A model generated the notes under the pieces. The model was not told the origin of the DNA. It saw only the letters and a list, made by a program, of their open reading frames with translations, and did not search any database. A stretch of 64,000 bases of DNA from an uncultured bacterium (GTDB lineage Bacteria; Actinomycetota; Acidimicrobiia; Spongiisociales; ZC4RG35). The stretch spans positions 254,908 to 318,907 of the forward strand of contig CAWBVW010000006.1 in assembly GCA_963792365.1 (NCBI GenBank), read 5' to 3'. The position numbers and the translations under genes were made by a program. Below, one piece after another: positions 3,742 through 64,000 of the stretch (position 1 is its first letter; each line of letters opens with the position of its first letter).

Positions 3742-3811
3742 TGCGATCTCGCAGCCCCTTGGCGTTGAGATCGACCGTGGCCTTGTGTGGTGGGTCGGCC
3801 GGGTTGATGGT

Positions 3812-4457
3812 CTATCGGCGGCCGGCTGCGTTCAATTCGGGGTGTTCGCCTCGTGGCCGGAGGCCTGAGAGCTTGTGGGCAGGTCCTCGGATGGTTACGC
3901 CAGATTGACGTGCCCGGTCAGGGGTTATCCGTCCGAGTAGGACGCCGACGACTGGTTCGGTTGGGCCGGTGAGGATGACGTCCGGCTGGCGGGTGCGTCC
4001 GGGCGTGAGCTGCACGCGACCGGCTCGCAACTCGAGAGTGAACACGTCATCGTCGGTGGAGAGTTCGACGGTGAGATCGCTCCGTTTTGGGTCGCGGCCG
4101 TCGAAGCGTGCAAATGACCATGTGGTGGAGCCAGGGTGTCTGGAAGTGATCGTCGCCCCGTGGCCGGGCCATGAGGGGACCGGCCCATCGACCGAGGGCG
4201 TACACGGCGTCACGCAGCTCGTATCCCCAGGCGGTGAGTTCGTATCGTCTGTCTGGGTGCCGTTCGAGCACGCCGGCGTCCGTGAGACTTCGGAGTCGGT
4301 CGGCGAGGAGGTTAGTGGCCATTCCGGGGAGGCCGCTGAGGAGATCGTTGTAGCCCTTGGGGCCGTCCAGGAGCTCCCGGACGATGAGCAACGTCCACCG
4401 CTCTCCGATCACGTCGAGGGCTCGCGCCAGGCCGCAGAACTGCTTGTAGGACCTCAC
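3812..4457 (-). CDS. HxlR-family winged-helix regulator with C-terminal SCP2-like domain; frameshifted near 4115-4120 as given
   Basis: YKQFCGLARALDVIGERWTLLIVRELLDGPKGYNDL (HxlR); continuation ARFDG...VELSTDDDVFTLELRAGRVQLTPGRTRQPDVILTG in the adjacent frame; one extra T in GTCATTTGCA explains the shift. Confidence 0.75.
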
Positions 4458-53840: not shown

Positions 53841-54673
53841 GTGATGGCGTAGATATCTGTCCGCCGATCGGCGCGGGGGGTGATGAACTCGCCCCTCACC
53901 TGAGCGCGTTTGGCCGCTCCGATGTCGACTCGGGCGACGGCGACTTCCTGATCGCGACCGGACAGCGGACCGATCACCCGCGCGCCGTAGGGGTCGATCA
54001 GAATCGAGCTCCCGAGGAAGTCGCAGCTTCCGTGCGTGCCAGCCTGGGATGCGGCACCGATGAACACCTGGCTGAGATTGGCCTGGAGCTCGACTCCTCT
54101 GCCCTGCGGCGACATGCCCTCGTCGTCCCATCTGACCTGATCGAATCCTGGCAGCCACGCTGTTGGCACGCAGATGAGGTCCGCGCCGCGCAGGGCCATG
54201 AGCCGCACGACCTCGATGAAGCGGAGGTCGTAGCAGACGCACAACCCGACGGCCCCGAACCGAGTTCGAGCAACAGGGAACCCCAGGTCTCCGGGTGCGA
54301 AAGCGATCTTCTCTTCGGCGAACAGGTGGGTCTTGCGATAATGAGCGATCGTGCCATCCGGACCGACCGCTACCGCAGTGTTGTAGAGGCGCTCACCCTC
54401 CAATTCCGCGAGGCCACCGATCACGTACCCACCCGCGTCACGAGCAAGGCGTTGCCACTCATCTGTCGTGGGGCCGGGCACCGACTCGGCAACCTCGACT
54501 AGCCCGCGGGCATCGGCGACATACCCTGGCACGATGAGCTCGGGAAGGATCACAATGTCGGCGTCCTGGTCGAACGCAGAGCTGATTGCCTGGCGGCATC
54601 GCGCTCGATTGACTTCGACCTCGAACGGTTCCCCGGAGATTTGGGCGATTCCGATCCCGACCTCGTGGCTCAC
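53819..54673 (-). CDS. Carbon-nitrogen hydrolase (nitrilase superfamily amidase)
   Basis: Glu (LPEL), Lys (YRKTHL) and Cys (VCYDLRF) triad. Confidence 0.92.
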   Translation of the reverse strand: MSHEVGIGIAQISGEPFEVEVNRARCRQAISSAFDQDADIVILPELIVPGYVADARGLVEVAESVPGPTTDEWQRLARDAGGYVIGGLAELEGERLYNTAVAVGPDGTIAHYRKTHLFAEEKIAFAPGDLGFPVARTRFGAVGLCVCYDLRFIEVVRLMALRGADLICVPTAWLPGFDQVRWDDEGMSPQGRGVELQANLSQVFIGAASQAGTHGSCDFLGSSILIDPYGARVIGPLSGRDQEVAVARVDIGAAKRAQVRGEFITPRADRRTDIYAITYAGETL

Positions 54674-55503
54674 CGGCCGAGCCTCTTGTACCCACCGACT
54701 TTGACCAGCATGTTCCAGTCGACCGGAGCAGGTCCGCCGACGCTTTCGATGCGCGAACCTCGGTCGGCCCTGACAGCATGCATCACCCCAACCGGAACGT
54801 GGACGGCACAGGGCGCCTCGAACTCAATCTCCCTGCCGTGGGTGAGATCTTCGATGGTGCCAACTCCGTCCAGCACATACAGCGTGTCCTCCGAACCAGC
54901 ATGGAGATGAGGAACGTTGCGCTCGCCTGGCTGCATGTCCACGTAGTTCATGTTGGCAGTCTGTGAGCCCCGTCCAGCCCAGACGACCAGTCGGGCGTCT
55001 TTGGCGATGATCGGCATCATGAGGTCGGGTTTGTCGCGGTGGAACAGATCGATGGCACCCTCCCTCCAGGCGAGCCGGCCCAGCCCGAGGTCGGCGTAGG
55101 ATCCCGGGTCTGCCGGGCAGGGTCCACCAACGAGCTCGGCGCCACCCGCGATCCCTTTGAAGCGGTAGCCGGCACCGGGGTGTACGAGTACCATCGTGCC
55201 GGCCGGCATCGTCCATTCCGTTCTTGGGCCGATCCCTTGCACCATCGCGGTCCCGCTGATCACGTAGTACACGGCTTCCATGGGATGCGCCATGCTCCTG
55301 GTCTTACCACCCGAGTGCAGGCTGATCCGATGCATTGATCGGAGGTGCGCCCCCACGCCAGGCCACACCACCGCCCAGGCGCTCCCTCCCGATTCGATGA
55401 TCGGCAGTGGCATGGCGGCAGGATCATCAGGCAGGACCCGCACGGCCTGCGCGGCGTGCAATCCTGCGGGATCTGAATTCAATGAGACTGCATGTTCGTT
55501 CAC
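54670..55503 (-). CDS. Bicupin protein (start uncertain)
   Basis: Two cupin barrels; the C-terminal one keeps PHLH..SEDTLY...HVPVGVMH, the N-terminal one lacks most metal ligands. Confidence 0.75.
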   Translation of the reverse strand: MNEHAVSLNSDPAGLHAAQAVRVLPDDPAAMPLPIIESGGSAWAVVWPGVGAHLRSMHRISLHSGGKTRSMAHPMEAVYYVISGTAMVQGIGPRTEWTMPAGTMVLVHPGAGYRFKGIAGGAELVGGPCPADPGSYADLGLGRLAWREGAIDLFHRDKPDLMMPIIAKDARLVVWAGRGSQTANMNYVDMQPGERNVPHLHAGSEDTLYVLDGVGTIEDLTHGREIEFEAPCAVHVPVGVMHAVRADRGSRIESVGGPAPVDWNMLVKVGGYKRLGR

Positions 55504-55556
55504 GTGGCTCAAGTCTAGATGGTAGCGTCCGGTCAGTGGAGCAAGACCGAGGTCCG

Positions 55557-56531
55557 ATGACAACGCTTTCACGGCACTGGCATCCAATCGCCACGTCGGA
55601 AGAGGTCGAGGAAAGCCCGAGGCGATTCACGCTGCTGGGGACCGAACTCGTCGCCTTCCGGACCGTCAAGGGGATCAGCGTGTTCACCGACTTGTGCATA
55701 CATCGGGGGGTGGCGCTCTCCCTGGGGTTCGTCGAGGATGGCATTCTGCATTGCGGATATCACGGTTGGGCGTACGACGCCACCGGCGCCTGCGTCGAGA
55801 TCCCGTCGCTCTCACCCGGATCACCGATACCTCCGAAGGCACGAGCCATCACCCATTCGGTTGACGAAAAATACGGCCTCGTCTGGGTGGGTATGGACGA
55901 GCCAACCTCGCCCGTCCCCCCGTTCCCGGACGACGAGTGGGACCGATCCGACTTTCGCGCGTTCGTTTCGCACCACTACCGATGGCAGACCTCAGCCGGG
56001 CGTGCGGTCGAAAACTTCATGGATATCTCACATTTCCCGTACGTGCACGAGGGCATTCTCGGATCCCGAGACGCCACCGAGGTGGCGGAGCATCAAGTCG
56101 TCGATCGTGACGGCGGCCTGTACTACTACCTCGAGGCACCCGAGCCCGCCAACCTCCACAGCCGTCCTGATGACGTGATCAGGTGGGAATACTTCCTCAC
56201 CGGCCCGTTCACGATCCACCTACGGAAGACCGTGCCCTCCGGCGATGTCACGCTGATCTCGATGGCCGCCTCGCCGACCGCCGAAACCACGACCGACATG
56301 TTCGTGTGGATCGGCCGGAACCACCAACTCCACCCTTCCGAAGACGCCGGGTTCTCCGACTTCACCCACGAGATCATGGAGCAGGACCGCCGGATCGTGG
56401 AGAGCCAGCGCCCCGAAATGATCCCAACTGACCTGCGTGAAGAACTCCACTTGAAGGTGCCCGATGCCTCGGGAATCGCCTACCGAAGGTTCCTCAGTCA
56501 GTTCCGAGACGCAACCCCGTTCCTGCCGTGA
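55557..56531 (+). CDS. Rieske non-heme iron oxygenase alpha subunit (VanA/Ndm demethylase-like)
   Basis: CIHRG..LSLG...CGYHGW (Rieske); ENFMDISHFPYVH and late QD (mononuclear Fe). Confidence 0.92.
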   Translation: MTTLSRHWHPIATSEEVEESPRRFTLLGTELVAFRTVKGISVFTDLCIHRGVALSLGFVEDGILHCGYHGWAYDATGACVEIPSLSPGSPIPPKARAITHSVDEKYGLVWVGMDEPTSPVPPFPDDEWDRSDFRAFVSHHYRWQTSAGRAVENFMDISHFPYVHEGILGSRDATEVAEHQVVDRDGGLYYYLEAPEPANLHSRPDDVIRWEYFLTGPFTIHLRKTVPSGDVTLISMAASPTAETTTDMFVWIGRNHQLHPSEDAGFSDFTHEIMEQDRRIVESQRPEMIPTDLREELHLKVPDASGIAYRRFLSQFRDATPFLP

Positions 56532-56541
56532 GGAATAGCGA

Positions 56542-57600
56542 GTGACAGCGAACGTCATCGAGTTGAGCGACCGGCGGGAGACCCCAACCTGGGTTCGAAC
56601 ACTGATCGCTTTCATCGGCACCTTGGCGGCAACCGGCGTCTTGGTCTTGGCGCTCGGCGCCAGTCCCGTGCAGGTCGCCAAGGCGATCGTGATCGGCTCG
56701 GTAGGCAACTCGTTCAACATCTCGCAAACCATCATCACAATGGGAATCCTGATCGGCACAGCTCTTGCGGCCGCCATTCCGTTCTCCGCCCGACTGTGGA
56801 ACGTTGGCGGGGAGGGTCAGATGACCTTCGGTGCCATCGCCGCGGCCGTACTTGGCATCGTCCTGCCTGAAGGATGGCCGGCCTGGATCATGATCCCGGC
56901 GGTCATGCTGGGCGCCATGGTGGCAGCTGCCGGGTTCGCCGCCATCCCTGGCTGGCTCAAAGCCCGATGGGATGCCTCCGAGATTGTGACGACGTTGATG
57001 CTCAACTTCGTGGCGGTGAACGTAGCGGCATGGGTCATCTTCGATGTCTTTCCTGAAGGCTTCGTTCAGAAGACCGAGAGCATCCACGCAGCCGCAGAGC
57101 TTCCTCGCCCGATCGAGGGCTGGCTTGTGGACGTCGGGATCATCGCCGCGGTCGTGGCCGCACTATTCGCCTGGTTCGCGGTTCGCCAGACCCGGCTTGG
57201 GTTCTCGATCCGAGCTATCGGCGCCAACGCCCGCGCCTCCAGGCTGGCGGGTATACGGACAGAGCGGGTGACCGTACAGACCTTCTTGCTGGCGGGTGCG
57301 TTCGCGGGACTGGCTGGAGCACTGATCGTCCAGGGAAGGGACCACGCCCTCCTCCAGGATTTCTCGGCGAATGTCGGGTTCGTCGGCATCGGAGTGGCAC
57401 TGGTCGCCCGGTTGCATCCGCTGGCGGTCATCGCCTCGGCGGCACTGTTCAGCGTTCTCCGCGTTGGATCGAACAGCCTCCAGGCGGGAGCCGGGCTGTC
57501 CCCCGTCGTCGGCGAGATGATCATCGCCACGTTCGTCGTACTGCTGATGGTCACCGGAGTGATCAGATTCCGATACCCCGAGGGCGCTGATGCTCACTGA
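56542..57600 (+). CDS. ABC transporter permease (BMP/nucleoside-type importer)
   Basis: WNVGGEGQ, EIVTTLMLNFVA, LGFSIRAIGANARASRLAGI, GFVGIGVALV. Confidence 0.9.
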   Translation: MTANVIELSDRRETPTWVRTLIAFIGTLAATGVLVLALGASPVQVAKAIVIGSVGNSFNISQTIITMGILIGTALAAAIPFSARLWNVGGEGQMTFGAIAAAVLGIVLPEGWPAWIMIPAVMLGAMVAAAGFAAIPGWLKARWDASEIVTTLMLNFVAVNVAAWVIFDVFPEGFVQKTESIHAAAELPRPIEGWLVDVGIIAAVVAALFAWFAVRQTRLGFSIRAIGANARASRLAGIRTERVTVQTFLLAGAFAGLAGALIVQGRDHALLQDFSANVGFVGIGVALVARLHPLAVIASAALFSVLRVGSNSLQAGAGLSPVVGEMIIATFVVLLMVTGVIRFRYPEGADAH

Positions 57601-58519
57601 GGCGCTGCTCATCGCGTTCTTCGTGATCGGAATCCAGCTCATGGTGCCGATCGTGCTGGCCGCGTTGGGAGAGACGATTGTAGAAAAGGCCGGTGTCTTG
57701 AACGTCGGCATCGAAGGAGTGATGCTCATCGGTGCCCTGGCCACGGCGTTCATCGGTATCACTCTGCAGGCTGTCGTCCTAGCGCTTGTGACCGCAGTCG
57801 CGGCCGGCGCGGCGTCGGGCGCCATCCTGGCGTTCCTGTACGTGCGACGCGGCACCGACCAGATCGTGACTGGGTTGATGTTCAACATCTTCGCCGTCGG
57901 TCTAACCGGAACGATTCACTCGCGCTACATGGCGGGCCAGAACGGCGTTACGCTCGATGGGATAGCGATCCCCGGAATCTCCTCGATTCCTTGGGTCGGC
58001 GAGATCGTCTCGAAGCAGAACGCAATGCTGTACATCGCAATAGGGTTGGCACTTGGCGTCTGGTACCTCCTCAATCGCACGTGGTACGGCCTGTATGCAC
58101 GTTCCGCTGGCGAACGACCGATGGCGGCAGAGTCCGGTGGTCTCGATGTCCGCCGGTTGCGATATCCTGCGGTCGTTCTGGGCTGTGCGTTGGCGGCGCT
58201 GGGCGGATCAGCGCTGGTCCTTTCGACCTCCGGTGGTTTCGTACCGGGGATGACCGCCGGGCGCGGCTTCATTGCCATGGGTGTGGTCGTTCTCGCCAAG
58301 TGGCGACCTCGGTGGATCTTCATTCATGCTCTGGGATTCGGCATGACACAGGGACTCCAGTTCCTAGCCGGCCAACTCAGCGCCCTCCAGGCCGTACCCA
58401 GTCAGTTCTGGGTTGCGCTTCCGTATCTGGTGACGGTTCTGGCCGTGGTGTTCGCCCCGGGTTCGCGGTACCCGGCGGCGGTCGGGATCCCGTACCGGCC
58501 CGCAGCCAACGCTGCGTGA
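57590..58519 (+). CDS. ABC transporter permease (BMP/nucleoside-type importer), second subunit
   Basis: EKAGVLNVGIEGVML, RSAGERP, GRGFIAMGVVVLAKW, LPYLVT. Confidence 0.9.
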   Translation: MLTEALLIAFFVIGIQLMVPIVLAALGETIVEKAGVLNVGIEGVMLIGALATAFIGITLQAVVLALVTAVAAGAASGAILAFLYVRRGTDQIVTGLMFNIFAVGLTGTIHSRYMAGQNGVTLDGIAIPGISSIPWVGEIVSKQNAMLYIAIGLALGVWYLLNRTWYGLYARSAGERPMAAESGGLDVRRLRYPAVVLGCALAALGGSALVLSTSGGFVPGMTAGRGFIAMGVVVLAKWRPRWIFIHALGFGMTQGLQFLAGQLSALQAVPSQFWVALPYLVTVLAVVFAPGSRYPAAVGIPYRPAANAA

Positions 58520-58593
58520 TCATGCGGAAGTCCCCGCACTACCCCGCGTTCTCGCAGGCTCGCGACGTTTGCTCTGACTAAAGTCCGTCGAGT

Positions 58594-58613
58594 CATGCTC
58601 TTGAGAGAGCATG
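58594..58613 (+). promoter_or_regulatory. Intercistronic hairpin upstream of the substrate-binding protein gene
   Basis: CATGCTCT-tgag-AGAGCATG, perfect 8-bp stem. Confidence 0.35.
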
Positions 58614-58640
58614 TTCCGTTCACGACTTGGGAGGAAACAC

Positions 58641-59846
58641 ATGCGAGCCAGCCTGGGTCCTCGGACCCTCCGCTTGCCGATCGCGCTATTGGCGCTCGTG
58701 GTTGTGCTAGCCGCCTGCGGCGATGGAGCCGCAGACGAGACGACCGCAGCATCCGAACCATCGACCGGCGACACCACTGCCACGACGGAACCCACAACCG
58801 AAACGACGGCCGGCTCCGGCTCCGACACCACCGTGGCGGCAGGAGGTGACGAATACCGGGTGGCGCTCATCTATCCGGGAACGGCCGACGATCTGTCGTG
58901 GTCGAACGCCTGGTTCGACGGGGCGGAGCAGGCGATGGCGGAGAACCCGAACATCACTGTCGAATCGGTCGAGCTGCTCAATGACCCGGCTGCAGTCGTC
59001 CAGCAGGGCTCTGCATTCGCGTCGCAAGGCTTCGACTTCATCATGATCGCTCATGGCGCCATGGTGGAACCGGCCGTCACGCTGGCTCAGCAGTTCCCCG
59101 ACGTCCAGGTGTGCCTTGCGCCCCACCACCCCGATGGGAGCATCGACCAGCCCGCCAACCTGTGCTGGGTGGATGTCGCGCAGCACAACGCCAACTTCCT
59201 GGCCGGCGCTCTTGCGGCGATGGTGACTGAAACGGGGCACGTTGCGTCGCTGAATGGTTTCGCTTTCCCCGGACTGACGAGACAGCCCGAAGCGTTCGAT
59301 CTCGGTGCCCGATGTGTCAATCCCGAGATCACCTTCACACAGCAGTACATCGAGACCTGGACCGACACCGGCATCTCCAAGTCGGCGGCCCAGGCCCAGA
59401 TCGCCGGCGGGGCGGATGTGATCCTCTCAGCAACAGACAGCGCCGTATTTGGAATCCTCGAGGCTGCCGATGAGGCGTCGAGTCAGGTGTGGGTGGTGCC
59501 CTCGTACTACGAGAGCCAGTCGCTCGATCCCGACCATGTGCTGACCTCGGCGATCCACGGACTCACGTTCGCATCGAAGTCGATGATCGAAATGGCGTCT
59601 GCGGGCGAGATCGGCGACAGCGCGTTCGTCGAGTTCGACGCACTCAATGATCCTGAGATCGACGCACCGCTCTACGACAACATCAAGGCGCTGTTGACGG
59701 CCGAGCAGCTCGCCAAGTACGAGTCGATCGTGGCGGACGTGAAGTCGGGGGCCATCGCCATCCCGGATGAGACGGCCGGCGATGTGACCATCGGCGCCGA
59801 GGGATCGGGAGCCACCGTGGATCTCGCATCCATCGGGTGCGGATGA
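58641..59846 (+). CDS. BMP-family ABC substrate-binding lipoprotein (PnrA/TmpC-like)
   Basis: Lipobox LAAC; DDLSWSNAWFDG, FLAGALAAMVTETGHV, GADVI; GGAGG RBS. Confidence 0.88.
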   Translation: MRASLGPRTLRLPIALLALVVVLAACGDGAADETTAASEPSTGDTTATTEPTTETTAGSGSDTTVAAGGDEYRVALIYPGTADDLSWSNAWFDGAEQAMAENPNITVESVELLNDPAAVVQQGSAFASQGFDFIMIAHGAMVEPAVTLAQQFPDVQVCLAPHHPDGSIDQPANLCWVDVAQHNANFLAGALAAMVTETGHVASLNGFAFPGLTRQPEAFDLGARCVNPEITFTQQYIETWTDTGISKSAAQAQIAGGADVILSATDSAVFGILEAADEASSQVWVVPSYYESQSLDPDHVLTSAIHGLTFASKSMIEMASAGEIGDSAFVEFDALNDPEIDAPLYDNIKALLTAEQLAKYESIVADVKSGAIAIPDETAGDVTIGAEGSGATVDLASIGCG

Positions 59847-59878
59847 CCTGAGATGCACACCGGAGGAGAGGAGCAACT

Positions 59879-60676
59879 GTGAAGACAGAGATGTACTGCT
59901 ACATGGAAGATCGCGACAAGTTGGTCCTCCCCTCCGGTGTCCCCGACTACGACGACGCCTTCGAGAGCTGGCTCGATCCCGGTCACACTGCGGTTCTGGA
60001 GATCGACATGCATCGCGGACATGTCGGGCCCGAAGAGAAGCTCACCCTGGCTGTACCGCGCGCCCGCGAACGCGTAGCGGCGCACGACCGCTTCCAGACC
60101 GAATGCCGCAAGCTCGGCATCCCGATCGTCCACGTGCAGCACTGGCAGCGCCACGGCGGGATCGATGATCTCAACAACCGCAAGCACAACCGTATGGCCA
60201 ACTGGCGCGTTCTATACCACCTCTACGTCGAGGACAACGAACTCATGGACGAGCATTCGTGGGAAGGCACCAAGTGGCTCGATCTCATCACCGAGGAGGA
60301 GGAGGGCGACTACTACATCAGAACCAAGAAGCGACTCTCCGGGTTCTACCCGACCGATCTCGAGTTCCTGCTTCACAACCTCGACGTTCACACCGTGGTG
60401 CTGACTGGCACCATGACCGACGCCTGCGTTCTGTCGACGGCGTTCGATGCAGCCAACCGAGACTTCCGGGTCATCGTTCCTCGTGACATCGTCGGCGGTT
60501 ACTCGGAGGAGGCGGAGCATGGCGCCCTCCAGGTGATCTCGCTGCATCTCGGACTCGTCGTGGACTCTCCAGCCCTCCTCGCCGAGTACTTCGCTCGGAA
60601 GGACATGACGCTGCCCGCCGACCTCGTGGGTATCACGGACATCAATCAGGCCACCGGCACCCACGCCGGGGTGTGA
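59879..60676 (+). CDS. Isochorismatase-family cysteine hydrolase
   Basis: Asp (LEIDMH), Lys (KKRLSGF) and Cys (TDACV) triad; STAFDAANRDF. Confidence 0.92.
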   Translation: MKTEMYCYMEDRDKLVLPSGVPDYDDAFESWLDPGHTAVLEIDMHRGHVGPEEKLTLAVPRARERVAAHDRFQTECRKLGIPIVHVQHWQRHGGIDDLNNRKHNRMANWRVLYHLYVEDNELMDEHSWEGTKWLDLITEEEEGDYYIRTKKRLSGFYPTDLEFLLHNLDVHTVVLTGTMTDACVLSTAFDAANRDFRVIVPRDIVGGYSEEAEHGALQVISLHLGLVVDSPALLAEYFARKDMTLPADLVGITDINQATGTHAGV

Positions 60677-60692
60677 CGAAAGGAGCCAGAAA

Positions 60693-62066
60693 ATGGCAAG
60701 TGACCGACAGGCCGTCTGGGGAGAAGAGCCCAAGCCCCTGATGCCGTACAGCCCGGCCATCAAGGCGGGCGGATGGGTGTTCGTTGCCGGACAGCTGGCA
60801 TCCGACTTCAAATCTGGACTGGCGCCCGAAGCCGGCGGCGATGGACGCAATCAATTCGTCGAGAATCAGCTCGAGATTCAGTCGCGATTCGTGATGAACA
60901 ATCTCCAGCGAACCGTGGCAGCGGCAGGTCTGGACATCGGTTCGGACATCATGCGCATCTACCAGTGGTTCACGTCGCCATACCCAACGATGGACGAGTT
61001 CGCGGACGGGAACACATGGCCGAGGATCTCGATCACACCATATTTGAACACGAGGAACGAGTTCATCTTCGATCCACGCCCCGCCTCGACGGGGATGGGT
61101 ATTCGCGAAACCGGTCTTCTCGTCAAGGACACGATTCTCGAGGTCGATATGATCGGCTTCGACCCGGAAGTCATCCCGGGGCCAAGCACCGGGACATCCG
61201 TCCCGGAGGGCACGCCGTCGCCGCTCGCTGGCTACTCACCGGCCATCAGCCGCGGAGACTGGGTCTTCCTCGCCGGTGAGATTCCGGTTGACTGGACCGG
61301 TGACTGGGGACGGTCTGAGTACTACGGCGCTCCGAGCGGCGTGGCCCTCAAGGCGCGGACTGATCCGAACTTCTGGTACGACTCCGACATCGAGCGCCAA
61401 ACCGATTATGTGCTCGAGAAGCAGGCCGCCATCGCTCAGGCGGCAGGCACGTCGCTCGACCGTGCCGTCAAGGCCACGGTTTACATTGGGCATCCGTCCG
61501 ACTTCGAAGGCATGGACAAGGTCTGGAAGCGCTGGTTCCCCGAGAACCCGCCGGCCCGGGTCGTCATTCCCTACATGGGCCTCGGCGGTCGTGGGAGCCG
61601 CATCGAGGTCGCCTTCAAGCTCCTGGCCGGCGACTCGGATCTGGAGATCGAGACGATTGAGGCCACCGGAGCGCCGCCGGGGCTGGGACACGAGCCGCAG
61701 GCAGTGAAGGCCGGCAAGTTCCTCTTCTTTTCGACCGTGACCCCTGCGAACCACAAGGGCTCGTTGGAGGAGTCGACCAAACGGCATACCAACTTCCCGT
61801 GGTACGGGCAGCCACCAAAATTGCAGATGCGGTACATGCTCGAGAACGTGGCCAAGGTCTGCGAGGCGGCGGGGACGACGCTCGATCAGCTGTGCCGGCG
61901 GCAGGCTTTCCACGACGACTTCGCGTGGTTCGCACAGACCATCGAGGAGTGGGCAGACCACTTCGAGGGTGACAAGCCCGCATCCACGACGCTCGAGATT
62001 GGCGGACCTCTCATCGTGCCCGGCGCCCACGTTCAACTCGACCTCATCGGGTACTGCCCCGACTGA
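60693..62066 (+). CDS. Rid (RidA/YjgF) family protein with three tandem domains
   Basis: Three repeats starting PYSPAIKAGGWVFVAGQ, GYSPAISRGDWVFLAGE and GHEPQAVKAGKFLFFS; 457 aa is about three Rid domains. Confidence 0.88.
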   Translation: MASDRQAVWGEEPKPLMPYSPAIKAGGWVFVAGQLASDFKSGLAPEAGGDGRNQFVENQLEIQSRFVMNNLQRTVAAAGLDIGSDIMRIYQWFTSPYPTMDEFADGNTWPRISITPYLNTRNEFIFDPRPASTGMGIRETGLLVKDTILEVDMIGFDPEVIPGPSTGTSVPEGTPSPLAGYSPAISRGDWVFLAGEIPVDWTGDWGRSEYYGAPSGVALKARTDPNFWYDSDIERQTDYVLEKQAAIAQAAGTSLDRAVKATVYIGHPSDFEGMDKVWKRWFPENPPARVVIPYMGLGGRGSRIEVAFKLLAGDSDLEIETIEATGAPPGLGHEPQAVKAGKFLFFSTVTPANHKGSLEESTKRHTNFPWYGQPPKLQMRYMLENVAKVCEAAGTTLDQLCRRQAFHDDFAWFAQTIEEWADHFEGDKPASTTLEIGGPLIVPGAHVQLDLIGYCPD

Positions 62067-62117
62067 AAGGTTCGGGTCCGGTGCGGACCTCCCGCGCACC
62101 GGACCCGCCCTTCCCCG

Positions 62118-64000
62118 ATGCAAGGCGGTGGCAGCATCCTCGGACACGCGGTCAAGCGGCGGGAGGACCCGGCGCTCGTTACGGGACGTGGTACCTACAT
62201 CGGAGACATGAACCCTCCCGGGATGCTGCACGCCGTATTCGTCCGCTCGCCCATCCCCCATGGAATGGTCTCGCGGATCGACACCGTCCAGGCATTGGAT
62301 GTGCCTGGTGTCGTCGCGGTTTTCGGACCCGACGATCTCGAACTCAACCCGCTCACGCCGTGGAACGTCGACGCTGCGTTCTCGCGACCGCCGCTGGCGA
62401 GGCATGCCCGCTACGTCGGTGATCCTATCGCGGTGGTCATCGCCGAGTCCGAGGCGAGGGCAGTCGATGCCGCGGCCCTCGTCTGGCCGTCCTTCGAAGA
62501 GCTGGAATCCGTGATCGATCCCTTTGAAGCCATGGGGCCGAACGCGCCGCTCTTGTTTCCTGACTATGACACCAACGTTGCGTTGTCCGAAGGACTGAAT
62601 ACCGACACCGACCCGACCGACCACGGTGAGATAGTGGTACGCCACCGGCTCGTCAACCAGCGGCTAGCACCGGTGCCGATGGAGCCCGCTGCGGCTCTCG
62701 TCGTACCCGGTCCGGACGGTCGCATGACCGCTTGGATCGGCACTCAGGATCCATTCGGTGCCCGAGCCGATCTTGCCGCCACCTTGGGTCGCGACCCGGA
62801 GAGCATCAGGGTGGTGGTACCTGCGATCGGTGGAGGATTCGGCGCCAAGGGTGATCTCTACCCGGAGCATGCGGTGGTGGCTGCCGCTGCCAGCGCCCTC
62901 GCACGCCCTGTCCGTTGGCTGGAGCGCCGCGGCGAGAACTTCGTCAACATGGTGCACGGCCGCAACCAAGTCCAGGACATCGCACTCGCCGCCGACCGCG
63001 ATGGACGGATCACTGGGCTGTCCGTCGACATCGTCGCCGACGTTGGTGCCTATCCGGGAGTGGCGACGTGGCTCCCTCGCTATACCGTCGAGATGGCCAG
63101 TGGTACCTACCGCATTCCCGAGATCCGAGTCCAGTTCACCAGTGTGGCGACCAACACCACGCCGGCAGGGCCATATCGGGGAGCCGGTCGGCCGGAAGCA
63201 ACCCAGATGATCGAGCGGATGATGGATCTGCTCGCCGGCGAAGTCGATCTCGACCCCGTCGAGTTGCGGCGGCGCAATCTCATCCCACGTTTCGAGGAAC
63301 CACACATCACCGCATCGGGCGCCATCTACGACTCCGGGGACTACGAGGCGGCGCTCGAGGCGTTGCTGGCAACTGCGGAATACGGGACATGGATGGCCGA
63401 ACGCGACCGTCGCCGCAGAGCGGGATCGAGCCATCCCATCGGCGTCGGGGTCTCGACGTACGTCGAGGTGACCGTAGGCAAGACGCCCGACCATGACCAC
63501 GCCACAGTCAGGGTGCTTTCGGACGGAATCATCGAAGCCAGATGCGGTGGATCATCGCATGGCCAGGGCCACCAAACGGCGTTCGCGATGATCGTGGCGG
63601 ATCGGTTCGACGTGCCCGTCGAGCGCGTCGACGTGATCCAGTCCGACACCGACCTGGTGCCGCGCGGTGGAGGCACGTACGCCTCGCGGACGCTCCAGCT
63701 CGCTGGAAGCTCGCTGCTCCTCGCCTCTGACGACGTGATCGAGGACGCACGACGAGCGGCAGCAGATGAGTTGGAAGCAGCCCCGCAAGACCTGGTGGTC
63801 CTCCCCGGCGTCGGCCTCGGGGTTGTCGGAGATCCTGGCTCGTTGATCACTTGGGGAGAAATCGCCATGCTGATCGAGTCGGGGGGTGACGAACTCAGCC
63901 GGTCCCGCGATGAGCGACAGGGCGCGAGCACCTACCCCTTCGGAGCTCATCTCGCGGTCGTCGAGGTGGATGTTGACACCGGATGGTGCAGGTTGGTGAC
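62118..64000 (+). CDS. Molybdenum hydroxylase large subunit (xanthine dehydrogenase / form II CoxL-like); 3' end outside window
   Basis: Open frame from ATG 62118 to the edge: KRREDPALVTGRG, IGGGFGAK, PYRGAGRPEA, HGQGHQT, TYASR, TYPFGAH. Confidence 0.92.
   Translation, partial: MQGGGSILGHAVKRREDPALVTGRGTYIGDMNPPGMLHAVFVRSPIPHGMVSRIDTVQALDVPGVVAVFGPDDLELNPLTPWNVDAAFSRPPLARHARYVGDPIAVVIAESEARAVDAAALVWPSFEELESVIDPFEAMGPNAPLLFPDYDTNVALSEGLNTDTDPTDHGEIVVRHRLVNQRLAPVPMEPAAALVVPGPDGRMTAWIGTQDPFGARADLAATLGRDPESIRVVVPAIGGGFGAKGDLYPEHAVVAAAASALARPVRWLERRGENFVNMVHGRNQVQDIALAADRDGRITGLSVDIVADVGAYPGVATWLPRYTVEMASGTYRIPEIRVQFTSVATNTTPAGPYRGAGRPEATQMIERMMDLLAGEVDLDPVELRRRNLIPRFEEPHITASGAIYDSGDYEAALEALLATAEYGTWMAERDRRRRAGSSHPIGVGVSTYVEVTVGKTPDHDHATVRVLSDGIIEARCGGSSHGQGHQTAFAMIVADRFDVPVERVDVIQSDTDLVPRGGGTYASRTLQLAGSSLLLASDDVIEDARRAAADELEAAPQDLVVLPGVGLGVVGDPGSLITWGEIAMLIESGGDELSRSRDERQGASTYPFGAHLAVVEVDVDTGWCRLV

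Follow-up and report, generated by a model that had tools for sequence, protein, structure and literature searches.

The gene considered here encodes one protein with three Rid domains in tandem and lies on the + strand of a 64,000-nucleotide stretch of DNA, the window, from an uncultured bacterium of the Acidimicrobiia (contig CAWBVW010000006.1). To our knowledge, few enzymes with poorly known functions are as widespread as the Rid proteins, and firm activities are available for RidA and RutC only. The triple-Rid gene is found together with the genes of a hydrolase and a molybdenum (Mo) hydroxylase between the binding-protein and ATPase genes of an ATP-binding cassette (ABC) importer of the Bmp type, and the features of the locus are collected in Table 1. 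The open reading frame is complete and starts after a gap of 16 nucleotides from the stop codon of the upstream isochorismatase-family gene. RidA proteins require Arg105 for imine hydrolysis, and its loss abolishes this activity (PMC4433059). In the three domains of the triple Rid this position is occupied by Ser132, Arg289 and Ser431, respectively, a Ser-Arg-Ser (S-R-S) pattern that is the main subject of this analysis.

Three Rid domains in one chain

The presence of three Rid-type domains in the open reading frame is far beyond chance. PF01042 (Ribonuc_L-PSP, the Rid/YjgF family) matches the full protein in three stretches with 124.6 bits, and each single third also scores above the gathering score of 27.3 bits (Table 1). 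Identity between the domains amounts to no more than 21-27%, so the fusion is an old and diverged one and not a recent triplication. An AlphaFold2 prediction built on an alignment of 82 homologous sequences gives a single compact body with a mean predicted local distance difference test (pLDDT) value of 94.9 and a predicted template-modelling (pTM) score of 0.94. When DSSP is applied to this model, the element order b1-b2-b3-a1-b4-a2-b5-b6 (b, strand; a, helix) is read three times, at residues 6-156, 166-311 and 319-454, and the linkers that join the three Rid units have 7-9 residues each. The chain is thus predicted with high confidence to be a covalently fused, monomeric pseudo-trimer. An earlier note on this DNA, made from the letters alone, had proposed three tandem Rid domains in one chain that forms the trimer body, and both the profile matches and the model agree with it.

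A Foldseek search of the model against the PDB places the chorismatases 5AG3, 5A3K and 4BPS on top, with about 417 aligned columns, template-modelling (TM) scores of 0.62-0.64 (normalized to the target) and 12% identity. These chorismatases, FkbO and Hyg5, are the only full-length structural matches and also the only single-chain Rid-like pseudo-trimers with a solved structure. The remaining matches are all to single-domain Rid proteins, each spanning a third of the query at TM scores of 0.82-0.90. The order and handedness of the domains in the pseudo-trimer are predicted to be those of the chorismatases. A sequence search of the PDB found no solved triple Rid of this kind, single-domain Rid proteins being the only matches. 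The protein is a member of the Rid superfamily both by its profile and, in the model, by its threefold chorismate-mutase-like b-a-b-a-b-b fold.

Active-site residues and their pairing

The site of a Rid protein is known from the structure of TdcF, in which seven pocket residues are conserved, Tyr17, Gly31, Asn56, Asn88, Arg105, Pro114 and Glu120 (PMC1884159). One subunit supplies the Arg side of the site (Arg105, Cys107, Asn88) and the neighboring subunit the Tyr17/Gly31/Glu120 side (PMC1884159). Glu120 is hydrogen-bonded to residue 107 on the other side of the interface between subunits (PMC1884159), and therefore each pocket is built from the halves of two subunits. In the triple Rid the motifs read PRPAS(132)TG, NPPAR(289)VV and DKPAS(431)TT, with PAS at residues 130-132, PAR at 287-289 and PAS at 429-431, exactly as the earlier note had read them. 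Domain 1 has kept Tyr19, Gly33 and Glu150 and carries Ser132 at the Arg105 position. Domain 2 is the most RidA-like, with Tyr181, Gly195, Asp275 at the position of Asn88, Arg289 and Glu305, and in the PDB sequence search its alignments with PH0854 and TTHA0137 include the PAR motif. Domain 3 has Glu334 for Tyr17, Ser347 for Gly31, Ser431 for Arg105 and Gln448 for Glu120, and retains Pro443 at the Pro114 position. Domains 1 and 2 thus have an intact Tyr/Gly/Glu side, and domain 3 has lost it.

This pattern is shared by a large family. In a word-indexed search 981 relatives were retrieved, and among the best 120 of these nearly all have 448-466 residues (range 441-489, plus one fragment of 305 residues) and are 60-93% identical; where public sources give these 120 a name, it is solely 'enamine deaminase RidA'. 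An exhaustive search of representatives of clusters at 50% identity gave 2818 matches at E<=0.001 and 126 at E<=1e-30, and many of the matches are co-linear and full-length down to about 28-30% identity. The S-R-S pattern is present in all 119 homologues of at least 60% identity. In a set of 82 diverged asymmetric representatives, the residues are conserved to different extents: Ser347 in 77, Glu305 in 76, Gly33 in 75, Gly195 in 73, Pro443 in 71, Ser132 in 68 and Arg289 in 57. Since Ser132 is kept in all of the close sequences and in most of the diverged ones, it has been selected and is not a product of decay. Position 431 is invariant in the close clade and variable in the wider set (Ser 24, Ile 8, Leu 8, Phe 7, Ala 6 and others), and the Tyr/Glu side of domain 1 also varies among the diverged representatives. 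Judged by this conservation, the S-R-S asymmetry is real and under selection, and the alignments show a large family of conserved length in which the three inter-domain pockets are no longer equivalent.

The clade of the window protein shows little or no variation at Arg289, at Asp275 and in the Tyr/Gly/Glu sets of domains 1 and 2. The position of Gln448 is occupied in the close homologues by Leu (81), Val (24), Gln (7), Ile (5) and Glu (1). The clade also has two insertions of its own, one of about 15 residues between strand b4 and the PAS motif of domain 1 and one of about 11 residues after Gly195.

Which half-sites face each other in the fused chain? It is rather probable, from the pattern of conservation, that each pocket takes its Arg side from domain i and its Tyr/Gly/Glu side from domain i+1. 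In the family tree this pairing matches conserved halves with conserved halves and variable halves with variable ones. Raw associations, for example that of Arg289 with Glu334 (44:28 and 2:24), point in the same direction. Phylogenetically independent contrasts for the i/i+1 pairing sum to about 5.6 in its favor and 0.4 against it, and those for the alternative pairing to about 3.5 and 4.0; there are just 3-10 independent contrasts, with which a sign test cannot reach 0.05, and the pairing is a lean and not a result.

If this pairing is right, the three pockets would be Ser132 with Tyr181/Gly195/Glu305, Arg289 with Glu334/Ser347/Gln448, and Ser431 with Tyr19/Gly33/Glu150. Both intact Tyr/Gly/Glu halves would then face serines, and because Arg289 would face the Glu/Ser half of domain 3, no pocket would be fully canonical. 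The other pairing would place Arg289 with Tyr19/Gly33/Glu150 and so form one canonical RidA site. The earlier note had suggested a fused asymmetric pseudo-trimer with one active and two repurposed sites. The fusion and the asymmetry are upheld, the latter by every one of the close homologues, but a single canonical site is less well supported, as conservation favors Arg289 opposite the altered domain 3.

The importer operon and other Rid genes

The genes on the + strand are arranged in the order Rieske oxygenase, two BPD_transp_2 permeases, Bmp/PnrA-type lipoprotein, isochorismatase-family hydrolase, triple Rid, CoxL-type Mo-hydroxylase and fused ABC ATPase. The ATPase gene of the importer follows the Mo-hydroxylase gene and is outside the window; the importer genes and those they enclose occupy 56542-64000 of the window and L008:126-3921. 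It is because of this gene order that the importer operon can be said to enclose three catabolic genes. Genes of the cyclase, EamA, nitrilase and bicupin families are located upstream. The GTG start listed for the Rieske/VanA_C oxygenase open reading frame (55407) overlaps the 5' end of the divergent bicupin open reading frame (54670-55587, - strand) by about 180 nucleotides, and the true start of one or both is probably further in.

Table 1. Positions of the triple-Rid gene, its Ser132, Arg289 and Ser431 codons, its operon neighbors and related genes of the same genome (numbers refer to the window unless a contig label is given)
Feature	Position	Strand	Remarks	Basis
Triple-Rid open reading frame	60693..62066	+	457 aa plus stop, ATG start	open reading frame listing, PF01042, AlphaFold
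Shine-Dalgarno-like GAAAGGAG	60678..60685	+	7 nt 5' of triple-Rid ATG	sequence reading
Rid domain 1 (aa 1-160)	60693..61172	+		Pfam 37.8 bits alone; DSSP elements 6-156
Rid domain 2 (aa 161-314)	61173..61634	+		Pfam 63.6 and TIGR00004 62.1 bits alone; alignment to PH0854, TTHA0137
Rid domain 3 (aa 315-457)	61635..62063	+	most degenerate of the three	Pfam 34.5 bits alone
Ser132 codon	61086..61088	+	PAS motif of domain 1	
Arg289 codon	61557..61559	+	PAR motif of domain 2, sole Arg105-equivalent in chain	
Ser431 codon	61983..61985	+	PAS motif of domain 3	
BPD_transp_2 permease genes, two	56542-57600, 57590-58519	+		Pfam
Bmp/PnrA-type binding lipoprotein gene	58611-59846	+		Pfam
Isochorismatase-family cysteine amidohydrolase gene	59879..60676	+		PF00857 103.8 bits
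CoxL-type Mo-hydroxylase large subunit gene	62118..64000	+	754 aa, past window end	Pfam
P0121, second triple-Rid gene	L008:10621-11880 = G000:C6:327520-328779	-	419 aa; ~11 kb downstream, outside window	
P0273, third triple-Rid-like open reading frame	L099:5451-6653	+	~380-400 aa; with a nearby single-domain Rid at G000:C5 around 377.7-380.7 kb	

The enzymes encoded next to the triple Rid have solved relatives. The isochorismatase-family neighbor has biuret hydrolase and RutB as its best full-length solved relatives (PDB 6xjm, 8bkd), and NCBIfam gives weak BiuH and RutB matches for it. The PDB matches of the Mo-hydroxylase are CoxL, 6-hydroxypseudooxynicotine dehydrogenase and quinoline 2-oxidoreductase. 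Genes for iron-sulfur (FeS) or flavin adenine dinucleotide (FAD) small subunits are absent from the flanks of the Mo-hydroxylase gene.

The neighborhoods of 80 loci with a homologue have been surveyed within 6 kilobases (kb) of the Rid gene, in Acidimicrobiia, Thermoleophilia, Alpha- and Gammaproteobacteria and Verrucomicrobiales. An ABC ATPase gene is found at 58 of the 80 loci, Bmp at 54 and the permeases at 50-51, followed by isochorismatase (42), Mo-hydroxylase (36), nitrilase (19) and bicupin (16). The locus of a homologue with 61% identity (L011/L012) has the identical gene order. Proteobacterial members are without the isochorismatase and Mo-hydroxylase partners; a hydrolase of the Peptidase_S15/CocE-NonD type or Amidohydro_1 adjoins instead, together with beta-hydroxyacid, aldehyde or short-chain (SDR) dehydrogenases and often again an importer of the BPD_transp_2 type. 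The recurring set is therefore hydrolase, Rid and dehydrogenase. On a metagenome contig with a homologue of 70% identity, two more multi-domain Rid genes (397 and 351 residues; L013:4088-6333) are located 4-6 kb upstream, with an importer of the same kind.

The gene is present in 3 of 40 related genomes and is therefore an accessory one. The genome contains 13 Rid-domain matches in all, including a separate single-domain RidA candidate with 120.8 bits. P0121 is symmetric: none of its three domains is without the Arg (PPAR, PPPR, PPAR), and the inter-domain identity is 62-69%. Its neighbors are a branched-chain-type ABC importer (Peripla_BP_6), a flavin oxidoreductase of the Old-Yellow-Enzyme type and a haloacid dehalogenase (HAD) family hydrolase. 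P0273 has Ser in domain 1 ('LPAST'), and its other two domains are likewise without Arg. Near P0273 there is a single-domain Rid of about 135 residues with 'HRPAST', that is, with Ser at the Arg105 position (L099 ~3745-4151, + strand). Three site patterns of triple Rid are thus found within one genome of 4.4 Mb.

Proposed function and comparison with known systems

With moderate confidence, and by analogy with characterized pathways, we suggest that the triple Rid is a monomeric fused pseudo-trimer that carries out the enamine- or imine-deaminating step of an importer-linked route for a nitrogen-containing compound. The Bmp-type ABC system would import this compound, which is probably a heterocycle or an amide, and its activation and opening would be the task of the Mo-hydroxylase and the oxygenases. 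The isochorismatase-family amidohydrolase encoded next to the triple Rid could then cleave a C-N bond to release an unstable enamine or imine, which the triple Rid would hydrolyze to ammonia and a keto or aldehyde product for further processing by dehydrogenases. This scheme follows the logic of RutB and RutC, and the resemblance of the neighbors to biuret hydrolase or RutB and to Mo-hydroxylases of N-heterocycles, seen in their PDB matches, is consistent with it. The pocket of Arg289 is the best candidate for imine hydrolysis because loss of the Arg105 equivalent abolishes that activity in RidA; catalysis would most likely occur there, with the Arg binding the carboxylate of the substrate. 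The pocket of Ser132, which is flanked by the two clade-specific insertions, may be a second retained pocket of different specificity, for another moiety or intermediate. The pocket of Ser431 would be the least constrained across the wider family.

Several observations weigh against a deaminating role. The position of Arg289 is occupied by Thr, Leu or Val in about 30% of the diverged representatives, so the Arg pocket is not a universal core of the family. If Arg289 faces domain 3, its pocket would also be without equivalents of Tyr17 and Glu120. TIGR00004, the NCBIfam model of the RidA subfamily, has a cut-off of 106.25 bits, and the single domains score 29.6, 62.1 and 35.2 bits, all below it; the full protein passes with 118.6 bits solely by summing the three domains. 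The importer genes, and not those of any one enzyme, are the tightest linkage of the triple Rid at the 80 loci. Finally, the chorismatases show, as an analogy, that a fused fold of this kind can host quite different chemistry.

This last point leads to an alternative that we consider unlikely but worth stating, in which the fused fold performs hydrolysis, ring opening, isomerization or decarboxylation of a pathway intermediate, instead of simple imine deamination, in a new active site formed by Ser132 with Tyr181/Glu305 or by Arg289 with Glu334/Ser347. The chorismatases would be the parallel, having evolved from the same pseudo-trimer. They give the best structural match over the full length, and a Glu of domain 3 serves them as the catalytic acid (PMC7170507). 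Ser132, Ser347 and Glu305 are kept more widely than Arg289, and the clade-specific insertions adjoin Ser132 and Gly195. There is also a precedent in cyanuric acid hydrolase/barbiturase, a ring-opening amidohydrolase with three YjgF-like repeats whose step is followed by biuret hydrolase (PMC4051656). However, the triple Rid has no sequence or profile match to the chorismatase or AtzD families, its identity to the former is low with Gln or Leu at the position of their catalytic Glu, and domain 2 retains an essentially canonical Arg side. With equally little probability, the protein could be a monomeric enzyme other than a plain imine deaminase that takes a distinct step, for example the hydrolysis or tautomerization of a ring-opened N-heterocycle intermediate without an alpha-carboxylate. 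The step would take place in a newly evolved pocket, made either of Ser132 with Tyr181/Gly195/Glu305 between the two clade-specific insertions or of Arg289 with Glu334/Ser347. The protein would then be the second case, after the chorismatases, in which new chemistry arose by fusion and specialization of a Rid trimer.

It is improbable that the triple Rid is a non-catalytic protein tied to the importer, which would bind or buffer a small molecule and hold or sense the compound or a reactive intermediate. Such a role would be in keeping with the linkage being strongest to the ABC importer genes across differing enzyme partners, with the loss of two of the three Arg positions, and with the assorted small acids that Rid pockets bind (PMC1884159). 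On the other hand, Arg289, Asp275 and the Tyr/Gly/Glu sets of the first two domains would hardly be near-invariant in the clade, the operon already has a dedicated binding protein in Bmp, and the co-occurrence with hydrolases and dehydrogenases suits an enzymatic step. A housekeeping RidA that guards pyridoxal phosphate (PLP) enzymes from 2-aminoacrylate, with a fusion and lost arginines of no particular meaning, would fit the names of the homologues and the summed TIGR00004 score, but it is just as improbable, given that the gene is patchy and sits inside a catabolic importer operon, that a single-domain protein of the same genome is a far better candidate for RidA and the R-R-R triple Rid is present as well, and that the non-Arg residues are strictly conserved.

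For the deaminating role that we favor, the closest functional comparison is the Rut pyrimidine pathway of E. coli, in which the gene of an isochorismatase-family amidohydrolase, RutB, likewise adjoins a Rid-family gene, RutC. RutC has been demonstrated experimentally to be a 3-aminoacrylate deaminase that acts on the RutB product (PMC8113886). Solved RutB aligns to the isochorismatase-family neighbor, but the NCBIfam matches to RutB and RutC are weak and far below the equivalog cut-offs (38 vs 378 and 89 vs 169). For the RutC equivalog TIGR03610 the full protein reaches 89.2 bits and the single domains at most 45.5, against a cut-off of 169.1, and membership of RutC is rejected on this score. 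RutC is also a single-domain homotrimer, and the triple-Rid locus has no RutA-type monooxygenase. Because genes for a Mo-hydroxylase, a Rieske oxygenase, a nitrilase-family protein and a cupin are present, the substrate is probably other than the Rut pyrimidines.

The cyanuric acid hydrolase/barbiturase AtzD has the 'Toblerone' fold, in which three YjgF-like repeats form a barrel, and in N-heterocycle catabolism it acts before an isochorismatase-family biuret hydrolase (PMC4051656). AtzD differs in that it has just one site, which is central and contains Ser-Lys dyads, and the relation to YjgF proteins may be convergent. No sequence relationship of the triple Rid was detected to AtzD, which is absent from the top 50 fold matches, and membership of that family is rejected. 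The literature searched held nothing relevant on a characterized pathway that combines RidA, an isochorismatase, an enzyme of the xanthine dehydrogenase family and an ABC importer, and no description was found there of the S-R-S family, the half-site pattern, the importer-embedded context or an assay of a triple Rid.

The chorismatases of the FkbO, Hyg5 and XanB2 type (PDB 4BPS, 5AG3, 5A3K) share with the triple Rid a single-chain, pseudo-threefold Rid/YjgF-like body with non-equivalent interfaces. They are shorter, with about 335 residues. In Hyg5, Glu334 on the C-terminal strand of domain 3 is the essential catalytic Glu and acts as the catalytic acid (PMC7170507); the corresponding position is Gln448 in the triple Rid and Leu in most of its relatives. 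The context is different as well, as the triple Rid is catabolic and importer-linked and without a link to polyketide or aromatic biosynthesis. Membership of the chorismatases is rejected: they are not found by phmmer against the PDB sequences, there is no profile match, and the catalytic Glu is replaced.

Niehaus et al. (BMC Genomics 16:382) named tandem fusions of three Rid domains 3x-RidA in 2015, with EF_0115 of Enterococcus faecalis as the example (PMC4433059). In their view the 3x-RidA presumably forms a trimer unit held together by covalent links, and the paper also states that Ser takes the place of the Arg in about 10% of RidA proteins (PMC4433059). The architecture is given one sentence, without structure, assay or site asymmetry (PMC4433059). 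The earlier note had left room for a known characterized family. The architecture has indeed had a name since 2015; a biochemical characterization was not found in the literature searched. Both kinds of protein are single chains of about 400-460 residues with three tandem Rid domains. By the description in that paper, the protein in the window differs in its S-R-S pattern, its diverged domains, the loss of the Tyr/Gly/Glu side in domain 3 and its two insertions. The name 3x-RidA implies an Arg in every domain, which the S-R-S protein does not have, and it is the R-R-R paralogue P0121 that represents the classical type.

The concept of a single-chain Rid-like pseudo-trimer is thus already known from 3x-RidA and the chorismatases, and the S-R-S, importer-linked triple Rid is a variant of that architecture. 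Because the architecture itself is known, the value of this variant is in the discovery of function and not in a new principle. A fused chain locks the three pockets into fixed and different roles, and the triple-Rid family reveals which half-sites are kept (Ser132, Glu305, Ser347, Arg289) and which are decaying, something that a homotrimer cannot do. The importer-plus-hydrolase operon is common in soil and sponge-associated Acidimicrobiia and offers a handle both on a catabolic route for nitrogen compounds and on the role of Rid pockets without Arg.

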